Assembly: GCA_963699755.1 (NCBI GenBank)
Contig: CAVOVB010000001.1
Span: 1,344,001 to 1,408,000, forward strand
DNA: 64,000 nucleotides
Reading direction: 5' to 3'
From: an uncultured delta proteobacterium
GTDB taxonomy: Bacteria; Myxococcota_A; Polyangia; Polyangiales; Houyiibacteriaceae
Shown: positions 13,015-62,072 of the stretch, one piece after another
Layout: each line of letters begins with the position of its first letter
Position numbering within the stretch: the first letter of the stretch is position 1
Program-made: the position numbers and the translations under genes
The notes under the pieces: model-generated
The model's database searches: none
The model's input: only the letters and a program-made list of their open reading frames with translations
What the model was told of the DNA's origin: nothing

Positions 13015-13088
13015 TGGTTCCCGGGGGTGGATTCGAACCACCATTCACAGGTCCAAAGCCTGTTGTCCTGCCCTTAGACGACCCGGGA
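13015..13088 (-). tRNA. tRNA-Gln(UUG)
   Basis: TCCCGGG/CCCGGGA acceptor stem, anticodon loop CTTTGGA, GGTTCGAATCC T-arm, encoded CCA. Confidence 0.95.
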
Positions 13089-53522: not shown

Positions 53523-54292
53523 ATGCATGCACTAGGTCTGCGCTTGGATGCGGCTTTGAACCGCCACCCGTACACTGACTGCTCAGCTCGAGGCGGGCCC
53601 TCGGCTTGTGCAGGGCTCTCGGTTTATGCCGGCCCCTCGGGCCGCACCCGCAAGGAACGGGTTCTTGTGTTTCGAGCGGAACCCGAGCCCAAAGAGGTCG
53701 AGATGCTTCGCGTCGTCAATGTCGGGGAAGACCCCGAACTTCGCGGGGCGGCTCTCGCCGGCACCTTGGACGAGCTCGATGAGGGTGAGCTCATCGACGT
53801 GCCTTTTGCCAATCATGACCCTCTCGCGCAGCAGCTCGTCCTGATGAGTCCTCATGCAGCACGCGGCCGCGAGCTGTCGGAGCGGGCAAAGCTAGTCGAT
53901 TCGCTGAGTGCGGTAGATGCACTTCGTCGCCTAGAGCGCTTCGAACAGTGGAGCAGTCCCGACGAGATCGAGGAGGCGCTCCCGGTCGTCAGCATCCCGA
54001 GGACGGCCTTCGAGCTTTCGAGGCAGCGCATCGTCTCAGATGGCGCACGGTTCGGCCTGGCATGTCCGACGGGCTCGCGCTCCAGGCGGTTCGCTTCGGC
54101 TGGGCTCCCAGTGCCCAAGAACTGGTGGCTTCGCTGGGACGCCGATTCGAGGAAATCCTGTCCTCCGCGTCTGCGCAGGGCCTCCGCGCGGCTCGGGGTC
54201 AGGCGAACCAAGAGGCTCTGGCGCGGCTTTCACACATACACGGTACTTCGACCCTCCCAGGCCTTTCGTGTACCATGCAGGTTTCGGGATAA
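53523..54292 (+). pseudogene. Hypothetical gene with probable frameshift near 54040-54075 (or sequencing error)
   Basis: First frame turns Arg-rich and runs 146 nt into the next gene; alternative frame is protein-like and stops 14 nt before it. Confidence 0.45.
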
Positions 54293-54306
54293 CTGGCGAA
54301 CCAACC

Positions 54307-55044
54307 ATGCGGCTCGGCATATTCAGCGACGTACATGCGAATCTCGAGGCCATGTCCTCCGTGATGGAGGCCTATGGCAGCGAGGACATCGATACCTATT
54401 ACTGCTTGGGCGACGTCGTCGGCTATGGCGGAAGCCCCAACGAGTGCGCTGACATCGTGCGCGACGTGGCTGAGGTCACCATCCTCGGAAACCACGATGC
54501 AGCGGTCGCCGGCCGGATGGACTACTCGTACTACTACGAAGCGGCCCGTCAGGCGCTCGACCTTCACGCACGCTCTCTGACGCCGGAGAACATGGCCTGG
54601 CTCAAAGCGCTTCCATACAAGTACGTCGTGGAGGGGACCGGCGTCGATCTTTGCCACGGCTCGCCGGTTCGGCTCGAGGAGTTCGAGTACATCTTCGCAC
54701 CAGACCAGGCAGCCGAGTGCCTGCCGATCTTGAACCAGCTCGGCCACATTACGCTCATCGGCCACTCGCACCTATGTAAGGTGTTCGCCCTTCGACCCGG
54801 GGAGGTGGAGGAGCTGCCGCCCGAAGATTTCGTCCTCGAGGATGGAACGAAGTACATCGTGAGTGTGGGCTCGGTAGGCCAACCGCGCGACTACGACAAT
54901 CGCGCGAGCTACACCGTCTACGACACAGACTCGCGCTCTTTCCATTTCAAGCGTATCGAGTACGACATCGAGGGCGCCGCCTCTAAGATCTTCGGCGCCA
55001 AGCTGGAACGGAACTTCGGACAGCGGCTCTTCATCGGCGTCTAA
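54307..55044 (+). CDS. Metallophosphoesterase family protein
   Basis: SDVHAN, LGDVVGYG, GNHD, HGSP, GHSH, GSVGQPRD. Confidence 0.93.
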   Translation: MRLGIFSDVHANLEAMSSVMEAYGSEDIDTYYCLGDVVGYGGSPNECADIVRDVAEVTILGNHDAAVAGRMDYSYYYEAARQALDLHARSLTPENMAWLKALPYKYVVEGTGVDLCHGSPVRLEEFEYIFAPDQAAECLPILNQLGHITLIGHSHLCKVFALRPGEVEELPPEDFVLEDGTKYIVSVGSVGQPRDYDNRASYTVYDTDSRSFHFKRIEYDIEGAASKIFGAKLERNFGQRLFIGV

Positions 55045-55062
55045 CAGGCCTATCGCCCAGCC

Positions 55063-56268
55063 TCAGGACCGAAGGAGCCCGCGCCAGGTCGGCTTGCCGT
55101 CCGCAGGTGCGTCGAGGGGGGGTGTCTGCATGGTGCCGAGGGCGCATGCGTACGCGCTGAGCCTCCCGCTCTCATGGAGGCGGGAGCGGAGCTCCGTGAT
55201 CGATGTGGGGTCTGCCCCGACGCACTTCAGACTCGATCCGATCGATTCCATCGCCTGGATGGCCTGGTCGAGCCCCTGAATCGGGACGATCGTCACATTG
55301 CGATAGCCGGGGCTCCAACGTATCTCCTGGGCTGGGCGGATGCCAAGAGCGTAGCTGGTGCCCTGAATCAGCGTTCCTTCGACCTCGGCCATTCCGCGCC
55401 ACTGTGCTTGCTCGGCGCCAACCGATGAGGGCAGTGGGCCCCTTGGGAGCGTGTCGCTCATCGGGTCGAGGCCCTCATCCGCCAGACGCCGGGCAAAGCC
55501 CTGGGCAGTGAGAGCGGGGGTTTGCTCGACATAGACCAGCTGCGGGGAGAGGCATCCGCGCTGGTCGTAGGCGCAAATGTCGAGAGAAAGCTGGGCGATG
55601 GTGTCACTCAGCCGCGCCTCGCCGAGCGCTTCTGCGCCACAGTACGCCGCGCTCACGCCGTGTCCGTGAGCAATGAGCCGGGCCTTGCCAACCCGGGCCG
55701 CGACCGCGGCGATCGTTTCGTCGCTTCCATAGACCGAAACGGCCTCGGCGCGCTCGACGAGGGCAGTCTCGCATTCGAGGTCACCTCCCGGGAACGTCAC
55801 CAGGTCGACTGCAGCCCCGAGGCGGGCGTCGGCGTCGCGTAGGGCGTCTCGGAGCATTGCGGGGAAGACGGTCTCCCTCGAAGAGGCTTTGACCAGGACG
55901 GGAACGCCCAAGAGTAGCGGGACGACGATGCCGCGCACCGAGGCAGTGAACACATTCCCCGCGAGCAGCAGCGAGAGCATCGAAATCGGAGCTTGCGGGC
56001 ATTCGAGACTTGCTCCGCGGGCCAGGGCGAGCAAGGCGTCCTCCGTCATCGTGTCGAGCGTCGTGCCGATTGCCCAGTCCACCATTGAAGTGCTGAGGCC
56101 CGTTGCTTGCGATAGCTCGGAGCGGCGTAGTCGCCCCCGTTGCGTCAGGGTCTTGGCCGCTCTGGCAAGCCAGAGTGCACGCTCTGCGCTGCCCACGGCG
56201 CGAATGGCGTCACGTGCATCCAGCACGGCGCTGGCTCGAGCTCGAATCGCCGAGGCGTCGTCGATCAC
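55063..56268 (-). CDS. Acyl-CoA reductase, LuxC-like
   Basis: LAGNV, VK.SS, YGSDETI, HG..S, catalytic YDQRGCLSPQ; GTGA overlap with upstream gene. Confidence 0.85.
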   Translation of the reverse strand: MIDDASAIRARASAVLDARDAIRAVGSAERALWLARAAKTLTQRGRLRRSELSQATGLSTSMVDWAIGTTLDTMTEDALLALARGASLECPQAPISMLSLLLAGNVFTASVRGIVVPLLLGVPVLVKASSRETVFPAMLRDALRDADARLGAAVDLVTFPGGDLECETALVERAEAVSVYGSDETIAAVAARVGKARLIAHGHGVSAAYCGAEALGEARLSDTIAQLSLDICAYDQRGCLSPQLVYVEQTPALTAQGFARRLADEGLDPMSDTLPRGPLPSSVGAEQAQWRGMAEVEGTLIQGTSYALGIRPAQEIRWSPGYRNVTIVPIQGLDQAIQAMESIGSSLKCVGADPTSITELRSRLHESGRLSAYACALGTMQTPPLDAPADGKPTWRGLLRS

Positions 56269-57329
56269 CGTGCCCCCAGGGCCTGGTCTGCGGCAAGCGA
56301 GCAGCCGCGTGGCGTCGCGCCAGCGGCCCGCCCGAGCACGACGATCCCGTCGTCGGCACGTCGCGCCAGGTCGGCGGTTTGAATGCAGCATACCGAATCC
56401 AGATTCGCCGTGTCGTCGATTCGCAGGATTCCCACCGCGTTTCCTTCGACGGGTTGGAGAGTGTCGGGCTCCACCGGCGTTGCGCGCACCCAGGGCGGCA
56501 CCCAGAGCCTGCGAGGCCGAGCGGAACCCTCGATGACCTCCCGCAACGTCGTCTCGTACATCTGCGAGCTGAGCTCGGTCGCCCCGAACTCGTTGATGAT
56601 GAAGGGGGCAGCGATGCCGTAGCGATCTCCGAGCGCCCGAAGCAGTAGGTCGGAATCCACTTCGCGGGAACGCCCCTTGTAGCCACCGGTCTGCATGATT
56701 CGGCTCCCCGGTGCGAGCGCGAAGCGCTGATCGCCGAGCCCGTCCTCGGCATGTACGAACGCGAACGAAGTGCCGAGCAAGGCGATCGCCTCCCCTGACG
56801 CCTCTGCGCTCCGGAGCACCTCGGTGAGGCGCTCGAGGTCGAGCGCGCCGTGACGCCAGGCCCAGGTACAATCGGTCCCGAACCATTCGGCAAATCGCGC
56901 CAACATGTATTCGAGAGAGGAGTCGGGGGATTCGTCTTCTCTTGGAGCCAGCATCACGAGCGGTAGTCTATCGACATCTGGAAAAAGCATTCGGCGCGCT
57001 GCGGCGCGGGCTGCAAGGTCGTACAGACTCAGGTCGGCGTAGACGTGCACGCTGCGCTCGGATGAGGTCGTGCCTGAGCTCCGAAACAGGCGGACATCGT
57101 CTTCCTCAGGGTGCGCCGCGATTCGTCGAAACCGAAAGACGTCGGTTGGGAGGGCGGGCGGCCAGGCTCCGTGACGCTGCAATCGGCCGTATGCTGGGAT
57201 GCGACTCGCTTGCCATGCTCCGAGGTCTTCGATCAGCGCGTCCCGAAGTGCCGGATCGACGTGCTCGCCAGCCTCGAACGCTGTGATCAGCGCTTCGATT
57301 CGGCTCTTGAGGATGGTTCGTTGGGTCAC
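56265..57329 (-). CDS. Acyl-protein synthetase, LuxE-like
   Basis: FRSSGTT, TGGYKGR, EFGATELSSQ.Y, D.ANLDS, T.DL, GR...PRGCS (acylated Cys). Confidence 0.88.
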   Translation of the reverse strand: MTQRTILKSRIEALITAFEAGEHVDPALRDALIEDLGAWQASRIPAYGRLQRHGAWPPALPTDVFRFRRIAAHPEEDDVRLFRSSGTTSSERSVHVYADLSLYDLAARAAARRMLFPDVDRLPLVMLAPREDESPDSSLEYMLARFAEWFGTDCTWAWRHGALDLERLTEVLRSAEASGEAIALLGTSFAFVHAEDGLGDQRFALAPGSRIMQTGGYKGRSREVDSDLLLRALGDRYGIAAPFIINEFGATELSSQMYETTLREVIEGSARPRRLWVPPWVRATPVEPDTLQPVEGNAVGILRIDDTANLDSVCCIQTADLARRADDGIVVLGRAAGATPRGCSLAADQALGAR

Positions 57330-58639
57330 GGGCCCCCGAGCGCGTCTCGCAGCGACGCGATGAAGCCCTCGACTTGCGGGTCGGTCACCGTGACCGGCGG
57401 CGCCAGCTGAATCACGTCGGCTTCCGCGCCCGCAGGTAGCACGAGATAGCCGAGTTCGAGGAGCGCGCGGCTGACGTTCAAGGCCTGCATGCTCGTTCGC
57501 AGTTGCAGTCCGAGCATCAGCCCCGCCTGACGTACTTCAGTCACGGAGGGGAGCTGCGCTTCGCGCAGCAGGGCAGCGAGCGCCCCGCCCCGAGCGGCGG
57601 CCCGCCGGGCGAGCTGGTCGCGTTCGATCAGCGCGATGGTGGCAAGCGCCGCTGAGGAACCCAGAGGATCGCCGAAAAACGTGCCCGTGTGAATCGCCTC
57701 GCGGTCCGGATGACCCCATGCCCGCATCACGTCTTCGCTCCCGATGCACGCGCTGACCGGCAGACCGCCACCAAGGGCCTTGCCCGCGCAGATCAGATCC
57801 GGGGTGACGCCTTCGTCGACCGATCGCCACCATGCACCGCAGCGGCCAAGCCCGGTGAAGATCTCATCGACGATCAGCAGCGCATCGTTTTGCTTGCACG
57901 CCCGGCCGAGCGCTTCGAGAAAGCCCGGCGGGGGCAAGCGAACACCCGCGCGTCCCTGAATGGGCTCGACGATCACCGCGCCGATGCTGCCCCAGTCGTC
58001 GGGCAGCGTTCCCAGAGCCGCGTCGACTCCGAGATTGTAAGCGGGCCAAGGTGCGAAGTGTATGTCGCGCTGCAGTTGTGCCAAAAAGGGTTCGCGGAAG
58101 CGCTTGGCAAACCCGGAGACCGCCAACGGACCGTGGCTTAGTCCGTGGTAGCTACCCTCGAATGCGACGACTCCGGTCTTGCCCGTCGCCATGACCGCGG
58201 TCTTGAGCGCCGCTGTGACAGCATCGGCGCCGCTGAGCGAAAGCATGGCCCTTGCTTGCGGCCATGGCGCCAGCGAACAGAGTCGTTCGAGAAGCTCGAT
58301 CTTCACGTCCGAGGGGTGTAGGTCGCCGAGCGCGTGCAAGAGTCGATCTGCTTGCCGCTTCACGGCGTCGACGACCTCTGGATGACGATGCCCGACGAAC
58401 GCCACGCCGAATCCCGATGTGAGGTCGACGTATCGGTTGCCATCGGCATCGATCACGTTCGCGCCCTGGGCCTCGACCCAGACGATCGGATCGTGACTCG
58501 CTCCCGTCAGTTCTTCGCGGCGTTTGCGTCGAGTGGTGAGCGCGGGGCACTCACTTGCCGCGAGGCGCTCTACCCAGGTTTGACCCGCCGCCGCCGGGAT
58601 CGGGCGTCGAATACGTGGAAGGGCTTCACCAGGCTTCAC
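57326..58639 (-). CDS. Class III PLP-dependent aminotransferase
   Basis: D.DGNRYVD, GH.HP, SGADA, SYHG, VEPIQG, DEIFTG.GR, AGKALGGG, TGTF.G.P. Confidence 0.92.
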   Translation of the reverse strand: MKPGEALPRIRRPIPAAAGQTWVERLAASECPALTTRRKRREELTGASHDPIVWVEAQGANVIDADGNRYVDLTSGFGVAFVGHRHPEVVDAVKRQADRLLHALGDLHPSDVKIELLERLCSLAPWPQARAMLSLSGADAVTAALKTAVMATGKTGVVAFEGSYHGLSHGPLAVSGFAKRFREPFLAQLQRDIHFAPWPAYNLGVDAALGTLPDDWGSIGAVIVEPIQGRAGVRLPPPGFLEALGRACKQNDALLIVDEIFTGLGRCGAWWRSVDEGVTPDLICAGKALGGGLPVSACIGSEDVMRAWGHPDREAIHTGTFFGDPLGSSAALATIALIERDQLARRAAARGGALAALLREAQLPSVTEVRQAGLMLGLQLRTSMQALNVSRALLELGYLVLPAGAEADVIQLAPPVTVTDPQVEGFIASLRDALGGP

Positions 58640-58655
58640 GCTGGTGTCTTAGCAC

Positions 58656-60107
58656 CTATTGGGCAAAGGGTTTCGGCTTCCACGGATAGAAGACGAAACC
58701 GTTTTCACGGGCTTTGCGAAGCATGTCATGCCCGTCGATGAGTAGAACGTCGACTTCCATGTCGTGACGGCGGCTGGCGTCGATGAGCTCTTTGATGATC
58801 GCGGTCACGTTGTCCCGAAAGTTGTCGGCGATCCGCAAGCCGACCGCCGGAGTCGGGTCTCCGCCTTTCCGCGCAACCTCGCAATAGGAGGCCCACTCGA
58901 TCTCGAAAAAGGCCCTCAGGACCTCGGCCATAGTCTTGAGCCAGTCCTCGTTCGGCGCCTCCTGCAGCTCTACCAGCTGGATTCCGTCTCCGATCGAGGG
59001 CCCTACGATTCGCTGCGGCTGCACCGTCCGCGGCTTCGCGTCGGGCTGCGTGAGCTCCTCCTCCTTGGGAGGGGCCGACGCCTTGGCTTTGGGGCTCACC
59101 GGCGGCGGTGGCCCGATGTGCGGGACCGCGGGCAGCCTCAGCTTCTGGGGATTAAATGAAGGCAGGGCCTGAGCGGCTGGTGCGGTCGGTGCATCGGAGT
59201 TGAGCCTTGGTGCATTGGAGCTCAAGGAACGATCTGATTCGGCGTCGCCTTGGTCCTTGGACGTGACGACCATCGACGGAGTGATCGGCATGGACGGCTG
59301 TCCGGCCGTTGGAAAGACGCTGGCCGCGCCATACGTACCGCCGTCACCCAGCTCGGCCTCGTCCGCCTGCACCTCCTCGATCTTCATGTTGGGGGGCTCA
59401 CTCTTGGGCTTGCGTGCAGGGCGCGAGCTCTTGCGCGGTGTCGACGCAGCCTGATCCTTCTTCGGCGCAGCCTCGCTTTGCTTGACGGCGGCCCGCGGCT
59501 GGGTCGGCGGCTCGCTATCATAGGGCATCGCGTACGGCTGCGTCGGCAGCTCGATCAGCGCCGTGATCTTTTCGGCTTCGCTTGGCCCCATGCTGTACAT
59601 GGTCGAGATCCGCTCGACTGGTGGTGGGAATGAGCTTTGCGCCGCCGTCTTCTCAGGCGCTGGCGGGGGTGGTGGTCGCGACGTCCGGAAGGGACCCGTG
59701 CTGTCCATCTCGCGAAGGATCGTCTTGAGCTCGCCGCGCTCGTATTCGAGCGAATGAGCCATGCCGATGTCGATCACGACGAAGGCATACTCACGTGTCC
59801 ACGCATGCCGCAGGATGTCTCCACCGATCGCGCGATGGGTCGCGATCGTTCCGTCGGCTTCCAGCCAGCCGAATTGCTCGGCCGTGGCCTTGAGCACCCT
59901 TTCCGAGCTGAATACCGCGAGAGCTTCTTCACCATTCGTATTGATCAGCGTGCGGAAGCCTTCCGCGCGTGGTTCCCAGGTCGCCAGCCAGACCGGTCGC
60001 AGCGAGAGCGCCTCGAGCGCCTCGGACTTCGGCCTCGCGCCTTTGGCGCCTTCGCGGAGCAGATCGCGAAATGCGTCGCTGCCCCGTTCATCTGCTGGGC
60101 TCTCCAT
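58656..60107 (-). CDS. SseB-like protein with long Pro/Ser/Ala-rich linker
   Basis: N-terminal G..AL.VFSS SseB-like domain; central low-complexity region; C-terminal globular domain. Confidence 0.6.
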   Translation of the reverse strand: MESPADERGSDAFRDLLREGAKGARPKSEALEALSLRPVWLATWEPRAEGFRTLINTNGEEALAVFSSERVLKATAEQFGWLEADGTIATHRAIGGDILRHAWTREYAFVVIDIGMAHSLEYERGELKTILREMDSTGPFRTSRPPPPPAPEKTAAQSSFPPPVERISTMYSMGPSEAEKITALIELPTQPYAMPYDSEPPTQPRAAVKQSEAAPKKDQAASTPRKSSRPARKPKSEPPNMKIEEVQADEAELGDGGTYGAASVFPTAGQPSMPITPSMVVTSKDQGDAESDRSLSSNAPRLNSDAPTAPAAQALPSFNPQKLRLPAVPHIGPPPPVSPKAKASAPPKEEELTQPDAKPRTVQPQRIVGPSIGDGIQLVELQEAPNEDWLKTMAEVLRAFFEIEWASYCEVARKGGDPTPAVGLRIADNFRDNVTAIIKELIDASRRHDMEVDVLLIDGHDMLRKARENGFVFYPWKPKPFAQ

Positions 60108-60175
60108 CCCGATCACACCATCCGATTCACATTGTAATCGTGAACCCGGACCGGATCGCAAGTTTTCTCAGACCC

Positions 60176-60203
60176 TTGACAGCTCCCTATCCACAGCTAG
60201 GCT
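60176..60203 (+). promoter_or_regulatory. Putative promoter of tRNA-Phe
   Basis: TTGACA-N16-TAGGCT followed by a GC-rich discriminator. Confidence 0.65.
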
Positions 60204-60220
60204 CCGCGCCTCAATTCCGG

Positions 60221-60293
60221 GCCCAGATAGCTCAGTTGGTAGAGCAGTGGACTGAAAATCCTCGTGTCCCTGGTTCGATTCCAGGTCTGGGCA
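60221..60293 (+). tRNA. tRNA-Phe(GAA)
   Basis: GCCCAGA/TCTGGGC acceptor stem, TAGCTCAGTTGGTAGAGC D-arm, CTGAAAA anticodon loop, GGTTCGATTCC. Confidence 0.95.
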
Positions 60294-60294
60294 C

Positions 60295-61986
60295 CTAGGC
60301 CGGCCGGCGCCGCCGCCTCATCAGGAGGGCGAACAAGGCCAGGCTGGGCCAGGTTGCCGCGTGGGAACGAGGCGACACCACCCCACATCCACACCCACTC
60401 GGCGAGGGGACCGTCGCGTTGTGTTTGGCCAGCGATTGGTCGATCGCGGCGGAGTTGTCTTGCACCACCGAACCGGGCCCGCTGGTCGTCAGCGAGAGGA
60501 CCAGCGCGTTGGCCGGCGGTGTGTCTTCTTCGCCGACGAGGAAGGGCCAGGGGGCGCCTGGGTTCAGACGAACGACGCGGCCATCCTCGAGCTCGAAGCG
60601 CGAAGGGGCCTCCCATCGGTAGAGGCTTCGATGACATTCGATCACGCGGCGGGCCGTGTGGATGTTGGACACCTCGGGGAGGTCGGGGTTGAAATCGAAC
60701 AGCGGGTCCAGGTCCATCTCGGGCGCTGACAGGGTCGTGTAGAAGCGGGTCACGTACGGTCGCGAAAGGATGAGCTCCTGCGTGCTGATCATCGGCTCGA
60801 CGACTTCCTCGCCGAGCGCGTCGATGAACGCCTGCTTGTCCAGGGCTTCGAAGGCCTCGGAATTGCAGCTGGGGCATCCCAAGAACGCATCCGCATCGAC
60901 ACCTTCTGGAAGAACGCGTTCAATCAGCCCTCGGTACCCGTCCCAGCCGATGAATCGACGGCTGCTCTCGGCGAGTAGCTCCGACGCGGTGAGAGCACCG
61001 GCGCTCATGCGCAGCGCCTCCCAGTCCAATCTCTCGAATTCGAGAACGAGGATGCCCTCATAGTCCGAGCTCGGACCGGCGCGCTCCGAGACGAAACCCT
61101 GTCCGCCGGCCTCGTTCGCCGCAGCAATGGCGACCTGATTGTAGTTGCGGCCCCCAGTGAGCCAGTTGATGAGCGCCTGGTTCAGCTCGAGCGCTTTGTA
61201 GTTGACGGGCACGGCGCGGCTTTCGCCGAGCACCCAGACCATCACGCCCATGTCATCGTTGGCCGCTACTGCGGTCGGCCGAATCGGAATCATCGGTTGG
61301 TCGGATTCGTAAGTGATCCAAACCGGGCGAATCGTGCCCGTGTCATTTCCTTTCGTGAGCCGAAACGCGAGCAGATTCATCGCCTCCTGCAGGTACTCGC
61401 CGAGGAGCCGTGCGATGTCGTTTGGGTCTCCGCCGGGTGGCACCACGTCGTAGCCTTCGCCAGTCAGCCATTGGACCGCGACGTCACCGACGTGCTCGAA
61501 GCTCGATTCGGGCTCGATCACCACGTAGTCGTAGGGACCGACGGTCCCAGCGGCGAGCACGTTGACGCCGCCGTTGCCGCCTGAGCCGCTATCGTTGAAA
61601 TTGCCTCCCGGCGCCCCGCTCGACGCGGAATCGTCTCCGCGCTCTTGCTTGCAACGGCCTTCGACTTCCGTCGTGAAGCCATATTGCGGGTTGCTCGCTT
61701 GTTGGAGCCGGGCAAACGCGAGGTCCGACGAGACCTTCACCTCTGGAATTCCGGGCACCGGCAATACCCAGGCGAACTTCTCCGAGGGCCCCTCGTATTG
61801 GATCTGGACGACGGCCGTCACCGTTTGATCTTCGTTCTTCGAGAAGATGATGCGCTCGGCTGCCTGATTGACCGGCGCGGTGGCGGAGCAAAAAAGCCCG
61901 CCACAGGCCTGAGCGGGCATGGGCTGGGCGAGCAGGGTCAGCAGGAGGGCCGATCCGAAACCAGGGAGCAGGCGCAATCTAGACAT
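60295..61986 (-). CDS. DUF2330 domain surface protein with MYXO-CTERM-like sorting tail
   Basis: ACGGLFC, QAAERIIF, IQYEG..E.FAWVLPVP, PMIPIRPT; C-terminal GCGC...TM-RRRRR. Confidence 0.85.
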   Translation of the reverse strand: MSRLRLLPGFGSALLLTLLAQPMPAQACGGLFCSATAPVNQAAERIIFSKNEDQTVTAVVQIQYEGPSEKFAWVLPVPGIPEVKVSSDLAFARLQQASNPQYGFTTEVEGRCKQERGDDSASSGAPGGNFNDSGSGGNGGVNVLAAGTVGPYDYVVIEPESSFEHVGDVAVQWLTGEGYDVVPPGGDPNDIARLLGEYLQEAMNLLAFRLTKGNDTGTIRPVWITYESDQPMIPIRPTAVAANDDMGVMVWVLGESRAVPVNYKALELNQALINWLTGGRNYNQVAIAAANEAGGQGFVSERAGPSSDYEGILVLEFERLDWEALRMSAGALTASELLAESSRRFIGWDGYRGLIERVLPEGVDADAFLGCPSCNSEAFEALDKQAFIDALGEEVVEPMISTQELILSRPYVTRFYTTLSAPEMDLDPLFDFNPDLPEVSNIHTARRVIECHRSLYRWEAPSRFELEDGRVVRLNPGAPWPFLVGEEDTPPANALVLSLTTSGPGSVVQDNSAAIDQSLAKHNATVPSPSGCGCGVVSPRSHAATWPSLALFALLMRRRRRPA

Positions 61987-62072
61987 TTTAATCGTCCTTT
62001 TGGGGCGCTGGGCGCAGCTTGGCACAGGCGGAAGCCGATGTACCGAGGGAATCAGCAAGTGTCGTGCCAGCC

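Follow-up and report, generated by a model that had tools for sequence, protein, structure and literature searches.

A LuxE/LuxC-aminotransferase operon of Myxococcota as a predicted QueC- and QueF-independent route to preQ1

We analysed a 64,000-nucleotide stretch (referred to as the window) of contig CAVOVB010000001.1, positions 1,344,001 to 1,408,000 of the forward strand, from an uncultured delta proteobacterium of the Myxococcota; judged by the sources of its close homologues, it belongs to the uncultured Polyangiales-type members of this phylum. The window contains an operon in which the gene for a class III aminotransferase is followed by a luxE-like and a luxC-like gene. We consider it likely that this trio is an acid-aldehyde-amine route to 7-aminomethyl-7-deazaguanine (preQ1), which is independent of QueC and QueF and replaces both non-orthologously. 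The genes and their junctions are:

57326-58639, minus strand: class III pyridoxal phosphate (PLP)-dependent aminotransferase, 437 amino acids (PF00202, 297.5 bits)
56265-57329, minus strand: LuxE-like acyl-protein synthetase, 354 amino acids (PF04443, 36.9 bits, cut-off 24.9)
55063-56268, minus strand: LuxC-like acyl-protein thioester reductase, 401 amino acids (PF05893, 113.6 bits)
57326-57329, minus strand: GTGA stop/start overlap, aminotransferase to luxE-like gene
56265-56268, minus strand: GTGA stop/start overlap, luxE-like to luxC-like gene

An earlier interpretation made from the DNA letters alone (the sequence-only reading) had described three minus-strand genes with 4-nt overlaps, and the open reading frames (ORFs) together with both GTGA junctions agree with this. 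A 607-amino acid frame starting at 56886 was rejected as an upstream extension of the luxC-like ORF, since it has an off-frame GC pattern and the homologues start near 56268. The luxE-like and luxC-like genes are single copy in the source assembly, which is 5.35 Mb long, 100% complete and 9% contaminated; two full rpoB copies (G000 C1:1666034-1670134 and C7:331576-335676) fit this contamination. The absence of luxAB and luxD nearby, also reported before, was confirmed: the whole genome has no match to luxD (PF02273), and the nearest of nine genes of the luciferase superfamily (PF00296) is located beyond the window, approximately 8 kb away from the operon, and has no NCBIfam family match at E ≤ 1e-40. 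luxAB is not part of the operon.

The closest solved relatives of the two Lux-like proteins are LuxE and LuxC of the luminous bacterium Photobacterium phosphoreum (PDB 7XC6; PMC9157457), which they match in profile searches with E-values of 2e-38 and 4e-40, respectively. Like the Photobacterium complex as described in that report, the trio has an adenylating subunit with a Lys/Arg pair and a C-terminal cysteine, and an aldehyde dehydrogenase (ALDH)-fold reductase with a catalytic cysteine. Lys218, Arg334 and Cys343 of the LuxE-like protein align with Lys238, Arg355 and Cys364 of Photobacterium LuxE and are conserved in 100/100 (Lys218) and 99/100 homologues (both others). Cys343, in the motif PRGCS, corresponds to the cysteine of the C-terminal KGCSL motif, and Cys239 in the DQRGCLSP motif of the LuxC-like protein, kept in 94/94 homologues, corresponds to LuxC Cys296. 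Both cysteines are thus intact, as the sequence-only reading had noted. Neither protein reaches the cut-off of its lux equivalog model (NF052244, 34.5 bits, cut-off 550; NF052251, 24.7 bits, cut-off 750). The putative pocket of the LuxE-like protein has Ser-Ser-Leu in place of Asn-Val-Trp and Thr in place of Gly. Its structure model (pLDDT 92.8) finds PaaK-type aryl-acid ligases first in a fold search (Z 22-23, rmsd 3.3-3.7, 284-305 residues aligned). This ranking is weak evidence on the substrate, since LuxE itself resembles PaaK (PMC9157457) and the fragmentary LuxE of 7XC6 is not in the match list.

The aminotransferase retains the PLP-binding residues Lys287, Asp258 and Thr320, which are present in 150/150 orthologues, and the alignment of these orthologues shows a family signature consisting of Asp106, Arg230 and His317-Thr318. 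Four positions differ from the ArgD/GabT pattern. The FHGR arginine, which binds the omega-carboxylate of the substrate, is Leu167 here and Leu, Met or Val in every one of the 150 orthologues; at the position of the gateway glutamate (EGG) stands the invariant Arg230; the DEVQ glutamine is replaced by Phe261 and the C-terminal arginine by Leu412 in the window protein. An enzyme without the arginine for a distal carboxylate suits an uncharged aldehyde that has no such carboxylate, and Arg230 may bind the alpha-carboxylate of the amino donor. The protein scores below the cut-offs of all 25 best NCBIfam models shown. Housekeeping ArgD, BioA or HemL can be ruled out as its identity, since the genome has a separate gene for each, above its cut-off. 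The aminotransferase is therefore not the housekeeping enzyme, in line with what the sequence-only reading needed, and judged by its sequence it is a distinct class III subfamily, neither ArgD nor GabT. We predict that it is a 7-formyl-7-deazaguanine transaminase.

The distribution of the trio was determined in 201 genomes spread over the phylum. A LuxE-like gene is present in 163 of them, nearly always as a single copy and even in a 1.8-Mb genome. An aminotransferase orthologue was found in 149 genomes at a threshold of E ≤ 1e-85, which misses some true orthologues (three of five retested misses had one); 147 of the 149 are LuxE-positive, and the remaining two, G189 and G186, are fragmented assemblies of 520 and 840 contigs. 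Among 40 loci picked for breadth across the phylum, the aminotransferase gene is located immediately before luxE in 35, and where it is not, the gene is usually found elsewhere in the same genome. The neighbourhood survey for a conserved class III aminotransferase that had been suggested thus revealed a linkage that is not due to chance. LuxE and LuxC are fused in loci L083, L097, L246 and L247. No fourth gene travels with the trio across 48 loci or among the unlinked aminotransferase loci listed, and the neighbours FolK and SUF are clade-specific. The trio is a near-core single-copy unit of the phylum and not a natural-product cluster. No copies were found among annotated phages; scans of viral collections gave one unrelated weak match and one 3.4-kb contig. 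On the latter (L335:3-1133) the 3′ end of a queE gene and a truncated aminotransferase gene lie beside phage genes, and the contig seems to come from a host genome at the border of a prophage.

The sequence-only reading had assigned the operon to a fatty amine or an amino-lipid precursor. For such a function, the queuosine-related pattern described below would be a by-product of ancestry or salvage. The relationship to the LuxE and LuxC of luminous bacteria speaks for it, as does tambjamine biosynthesis: TabE, which belongs to a sequence cluster with LuxC, produces a fatty amine together with the class III transaminase TabA, and TabE/TabA and TamH yield dodecylamine by the same logic (bioRxiv 10.1101/2025.08.11.669332). 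The acid-to-amine chemistry, for which the sequence-only reading named no description among LuxCE homologues, therefore has a precedent. TamA/TamH and TabE/TabA resemble the trio in leading from an acid or thioester via an aldehyde to a primary amine by means of an ALDH-like reductase that is paired with a class III omega-transaminase; they act with an acyl carrier protein (ACP) on C12 chains in natural-product clusters, whereas the trio has no carrier protein and is near-core and single copy. The genes that flank the operon in the window are unrelated to the tambjamine-type ACP/pyrrole module, no ACP, thioesterase or lipid gene recurs near the trio in 48 loci, and LuxD is missing. In addition, the LuxC-like protein is short: 162 residues follow the catalytic cysteine (median 160 in 82 proteins) compared to 192 in Photobacterium. 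It stops approximately 30 residues before LuxC and the profile alignment ends at LuxC residue 445, so that most of the C-terminal element P460-P488, the roof of the long hydrophobic cleft, is missing. Unlike Photobacterium lux, the trio thus lacks luxAB and luxD, is coupled to a transaminase, and differs in this element and in its pocket residues. A fatty product would also leave the QueC exclusion and the queE adjacency unexplained, and we regard it as highly unlikely. By analogy the operon would work like LuxCE plus an omega-transaminase, being neither a lux operon nor a fatty amine module.

QueC and QueF catalyse the canonical steps from 7-carboxy-7-deazaguanine (CDG) to preQ1, and genomes without them are read as salvagers in PMC5699537. 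QueC is above the cut-off in 34/201 genomes. It is present in 33 of the 38 LuxE-negative genomes (18 of the 38 were identified by subtraction and not by direct listing), compared to a single one of the 163 LuxE-positive genomes. The exception is G191, where the two QueC copies adjoin a FolE2-like gene, a FolE2-HTH fusion. They are part of an island (L149:6716-14263) whose other genes look like those for DGQHR-domain and Tgt-like proteins, and which is probably a deazaguanine DNA-modification system. The five LuxE-negative genomes without QueC are the two fragmented assemblies G189 and G186, G054 with a weak QueC-like match, G003 and G135. Full QueF (E ≤ 1.3e-19) was found in 30 genomes, all of them LuxE-negative. 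Fourteen weaker QueF matches occur in trio genomes, five being QueF-like proteins without the cysteine and nine having E-values of approximately 1e-6; the one of these nine that was inspected (in G053) is FolE-like and was discarded as QueF. The sub-cut-off QueC-like matches in G152 and G054 were likewise rejected, as divergent proteins in other contexts.

Because related genomes are not independent, an RpoB tree of 60 genomes was built (approximately one per family plus contrasts; G114 was left out, having no rpoB match, and G191 was counted as having the trio but not QueC). Trio and QueC each show eight changes on this tree. In seven independent pairs, the two change in opposite directions in five to six and in the same direction in none (sign test p 0.03-0.06). 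Genome G137 has QueC and no trio within a family of trio carriers. As a control, ArgC was present in 29/40 trio and 12/19 QueC genomes. This bears on the possibility that the trio stands in for a semialdehyde step on the way to an amino acid or polyamine (ornithine, lysine or a diamine), which would fit a single-copy, near-core unit and an aminotransferase whose closest sequence matches are ArgD/LysJ and putrescine aminotransferase and whose model is closest in fold to GabT (TM approximately 0.9). The substrate arginine and the glutamate switch of ArgD/GabT are absent from it, though, and separate ArgC and ArgD are encoded in the genome. With ArgC present and not complementary to the trio, a replacement of the ornithine route was rejected. 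From these arginine genes, the part of the semialdehyde pathways that was profiled, a role in such a step seems to us extremely improbable.

The other queuosine genes are kept in the genomes with the trio. QueA is present in 159, QueD/PTPS in 150 and gamma-type QueE in 107 of the 163 LuxE genomes. There were 56 QueE misses. In a retest of five, all had a QueE-like protein of another type; one of these proteins was above the Cx14CxxC cut-off and four were under the cut-off, and for the two of the four that were scanned, the best matches were QueE models. The source genome encodes FolE-like proteins, QueD, QueE, Tgt, QueA and QueG, with queA and tgt adjacent. Its QueE scores 275.8, under the cut-off of 300, as do queE genes located beside queC in other genomes. 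Its Tgt retains Cys158 and Val233, the residues of the preQ1-inserting enzyme according to PMC3660597. QueC and QueF were not found in the source genome, either with hidden Markov models or in tblastn searches, for which four QueC sequences and three sequences of QueF or QueF-like proteins served as queries, and the transporter YhhQ was also not found there, although 10 of the 11 genomes of its genus have it. With FolE, QueD, QueE, Tgt, QueA and QueG present and QueC, QueF and YhhQ not found, this organism likely makes CDG and uses preQ1 with no known step between them. Across the sample, 78 of the 84 LuxE genomes without YhhQ keep both QueA and QueD, so salvage does not explain these 78 trio genomes.

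Physical linkage to a queuosine gene was found in metagenomes. A scan with the aminotransferase alignment gave 535 relatives, the best 80 of which were analysed; 15 of the 80 had less than 400 bases of upstream sequence. In 12 of the 80 loci a QueE homologue is located just upstream of the aminotransferase gene on the same strand, mostly overlapping or within 100 bases (approximately 250-280 bases in L270 and L299). Four of these QueE proteins were scanned: those of L247 and L270 are above the TIGR04349 cut-off, and those of L277 and L309 have QueE as best match. L247 has the order queE, aminotransferase gene, luxE::luxC fusion, and L270, L275 and L291 contain queE, the aminotransferase gene, luxE and luxC.

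CDG and preQ1 differ at C7, where the former has COOH and the latter CH2NH2. This is the change to be expected from the joint action of an adenylating enzyme, a thioester reductase and a transaminase. In the proposed route, the LuxE-like protein would adenylate CDG, the product of QueE, and carry it as a thioester on Cys343; it is thus a predicted CDG-adenylating, thioester-forming enzyme. The LuxC-like protein would take over the acyl group on Cys239 and, using NAD(P)H, reduce it to the aldehyde 7-formyl-7-deazaguanine, which the aminotransferase would convert to preQ1 for Tgt. We infer the three reactions from the chemistry of LuxCE and omega-transaminases, and CDG as the substrate from genomics only, namely from the near-exclusion with QueC and QueF, the retention of the other queuosine genes and the queE adjacency. 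The acid-aldehyde-amine logic of the sequence-only reading is likely right. Its fatty substrate is not, since exclusion and adjacency point to CDG, and the same pattern argues against an amino-lipid precursor and against amine catabolism by the reverse reaction.

Compared to QueC plus QueF as described in PMC5699537, the trio is predicted to have the same substrate and product and the same place between QueE and Tgt. The folds are unrelated, and the trio would pass through a thioester and an aldehyde instead of an amide and a nitrile, needing a single adenylation where the canonical route takes two ATP-dependent steps, and with nitrogen predicted to come from an amino donor. 7-Formyl-7-deazaguanine is a real compound that QueF variants release as a side product (PMC13740343), its only known origin according to the one paper found on it. 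A related sequence of reactions occurs in caerulomycin biosynthesis, where CrmN/CrmO would convert a heteroaryl carboxylate to the aldehyde and CrmG transaminates the heteroaryl aldehyde; the reduction is only speculated, and it involves a different dehydrogenase pair in secondary metabolism (PMC6016722). A literature search, with most subscription journals outside its range, showed no paper linking LuxE or LuxC to queuosine among those listed, and PMC12041015 describes LuxEC for luminescence only.

Several observations weigh against this route. YhhQ is present in 79/163 LuxE genomes compared to 5/33 QueC genomes, and salvage could thus account for some of the missing QueC. Of the 13 trio genomes in family f31, 11 have no QueD/PTPS match at E ≤ 1e-10 (nine of the 11 have YhhQ and most have QueE). 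G195, at 93% completeness, carries the trio as well as Tgt and QueD and has no match to QueA or gamma-type QueE. The LuxE pocket does not identify CDG as the substrate, since a sister group described below also has Ser-Ser-Leu and Thr214. Eight of the 12 queE-adjacent loci do not show luxE or luxC. On the aminotransferase tree, the queE-adjacent proteins are spread over three subclades within a single starred clade of 31 rows, to which the window protein does not belong; there are four changes on the tree, and the adjacency may have arisen once. None of the Myxococcota trio loci contains a que gene, and none besides queE is located near any trio locus. Finally, the RpoB tree is a FastTree phylogeny of a single gene from hand-picked genomes.

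The f31 genomes without QueD (G038, G056, G061, G071, G096, G106, G116, G141, G151, G161 and G181) keep QueE, QueA and the trio. No QueD-like match lies near queE in seven f31 genomes, and the QueF-like protein without the cysteine was rejected as a QueD replacement, since it is present in only five of the 13 genomes. This T-fold protein (L152:4416-5015, L330-L334) has EFTFLGV or EFTFVGT instead of EFTCLCP as well as N- and C-terminal extensions, and its gene adjoins queG in one genome. In genus g115, both genomes (G135 and G195) have Tgt and neither has a match to QueA; their pathway may end with preQ1-tRNA or continue by a different step.

The f31 genomes, mostly without QueD yet with QueE and the trio, could also be explained by a different role in 7-deazaguanine metabolism. 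The trio might act on another intermediate (CPH4 or an imported acid), form another product or, transaminases being reversible, convert preQ1 towards the acid, and the same genomic pattern would fit. The LuxE/LuxC chemistry, however, is ATP- and NADPH-driven towards the aldehyde as described in PMC9157457, genomes without QueC and QueF need a source of preQ1 and not a sink, and Tgt is of the preQ1 type. We assign such a role a very low probability.

Relatives of the two Lux-like proteins occur on plasmids in LuxE-LuxC operons with a short-chain dehydrogenase/reductase (SDR). These operons (L160:6776-10321, L161:6557-12683, L162:1390-6321 and L163:6812-12648) are located on plasmids of Pantoea, Azospirillum, Lactiplantibacillus and Priestia; three of the four contain an ABC or SLC23 transporter gene and three of the four lie behind a thiamine pyrophosphate (TPP) riboswitch. 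Their LuxE and LuxC belong to the same subfamily as those of the trio (approximately 33% identical, with Ser-Ser-Leu and Thr214 in common); they differ from the trio in having an SDR and a transporter instead of the transaminase, in the TPP riboswitch and in forming a separate clade. They may serve in salvage, with oxidised fragments of thiamine being reduced from the acid to the alcohol. This sister group suggests that the subfamily reduces heteroaromatic acids (compare OarX as described in PMC11223231). A third LuxE/LuxC clade (L232:4605-7105, L233:5287-7027, L234:5099-8633 and L235:5462-7985) consists of second copies carried by genomes that have the trio, and its pocket motif differs; from their sequences we take its neighbours to be FAD oxidoreductase-like, aconitase/homoaconitase-like and radical-SAM-like genes.

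The plasmid operons raise the question whether the trio itself repairs an oxidised vitamin fragment, for instance converting the thiamine pyrimidine acid PCA to amino-HMP, with preQ1 being obtained by salvage. Both PCA and thiazoleacetic acid count among the orphan products of thiamine damage (PMC11223231), and the YhhQ found in 79 trio genomes would provide for salvage. On the other hand, the group with the TPP riboswitch forms a starred clade apart and has an SDR where the trio has the transaminase, and neither a preQ1 nor a TPP riboswitch was found in positions 54000-62000 of the window, in 16 short trio loci or in 13 metagenome loci. Use of amino-HMP needs TenA. This second control gene is present in 11/40 trio and 0/19 QueC genomes, and it is not in the source genome. 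The 78 YhhQ-less LuxE genomes with QueA and QueD also do not fit, and we consider vitamin repair a very unlikely function.

Upstream of the operon, a co-directional gene (58656-60122, minus strand) ends 16 bases before the aminotransferase gene. Its product has no Pfam match and consists of two folded-looking ends around a long Pro/Ala-rich linker; we take it to be SseB-like. This upstream position is kept only in close relatives. The window also encodes tRNA-Phe(GAA) (60221-60295, plus strand) and tRNA-Gln(TTG) (13015-13088, minus strand), neither of which is a queuosine tRNA.

Taken more broadly, the route to preQ1 proposed here is probably a second, widespread and nitrile-free de novo pathway, present in approximately four fifths of the sampled Myxococcota genomes and in lineages of other phyla (the latter according to the 80 metagenome loci, which carry no taxonomy), and swapped with QueC/QueF several times. 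LuxE/LuxC-type enzymes would then probably be mainly reductases of cofactor and nucleobase carboxylates, with the fatty acid reductase of bioluminescence as one offshoot. Queuosine synthesis is treated as solved (PMC5699537), with QueC and QueF as the sole path from CDG to preQ1. If the proposed route is correct, many environmental bacteria would be queuosine producers that use a different chemistry, and not salvagers. It would also give the large luciferase-free LuxE/LuxC subfamily its first function and would provide biocatalysis with an enzyme cascade from heteroaryl acids to amines that needs neither CoA nor a carrier.

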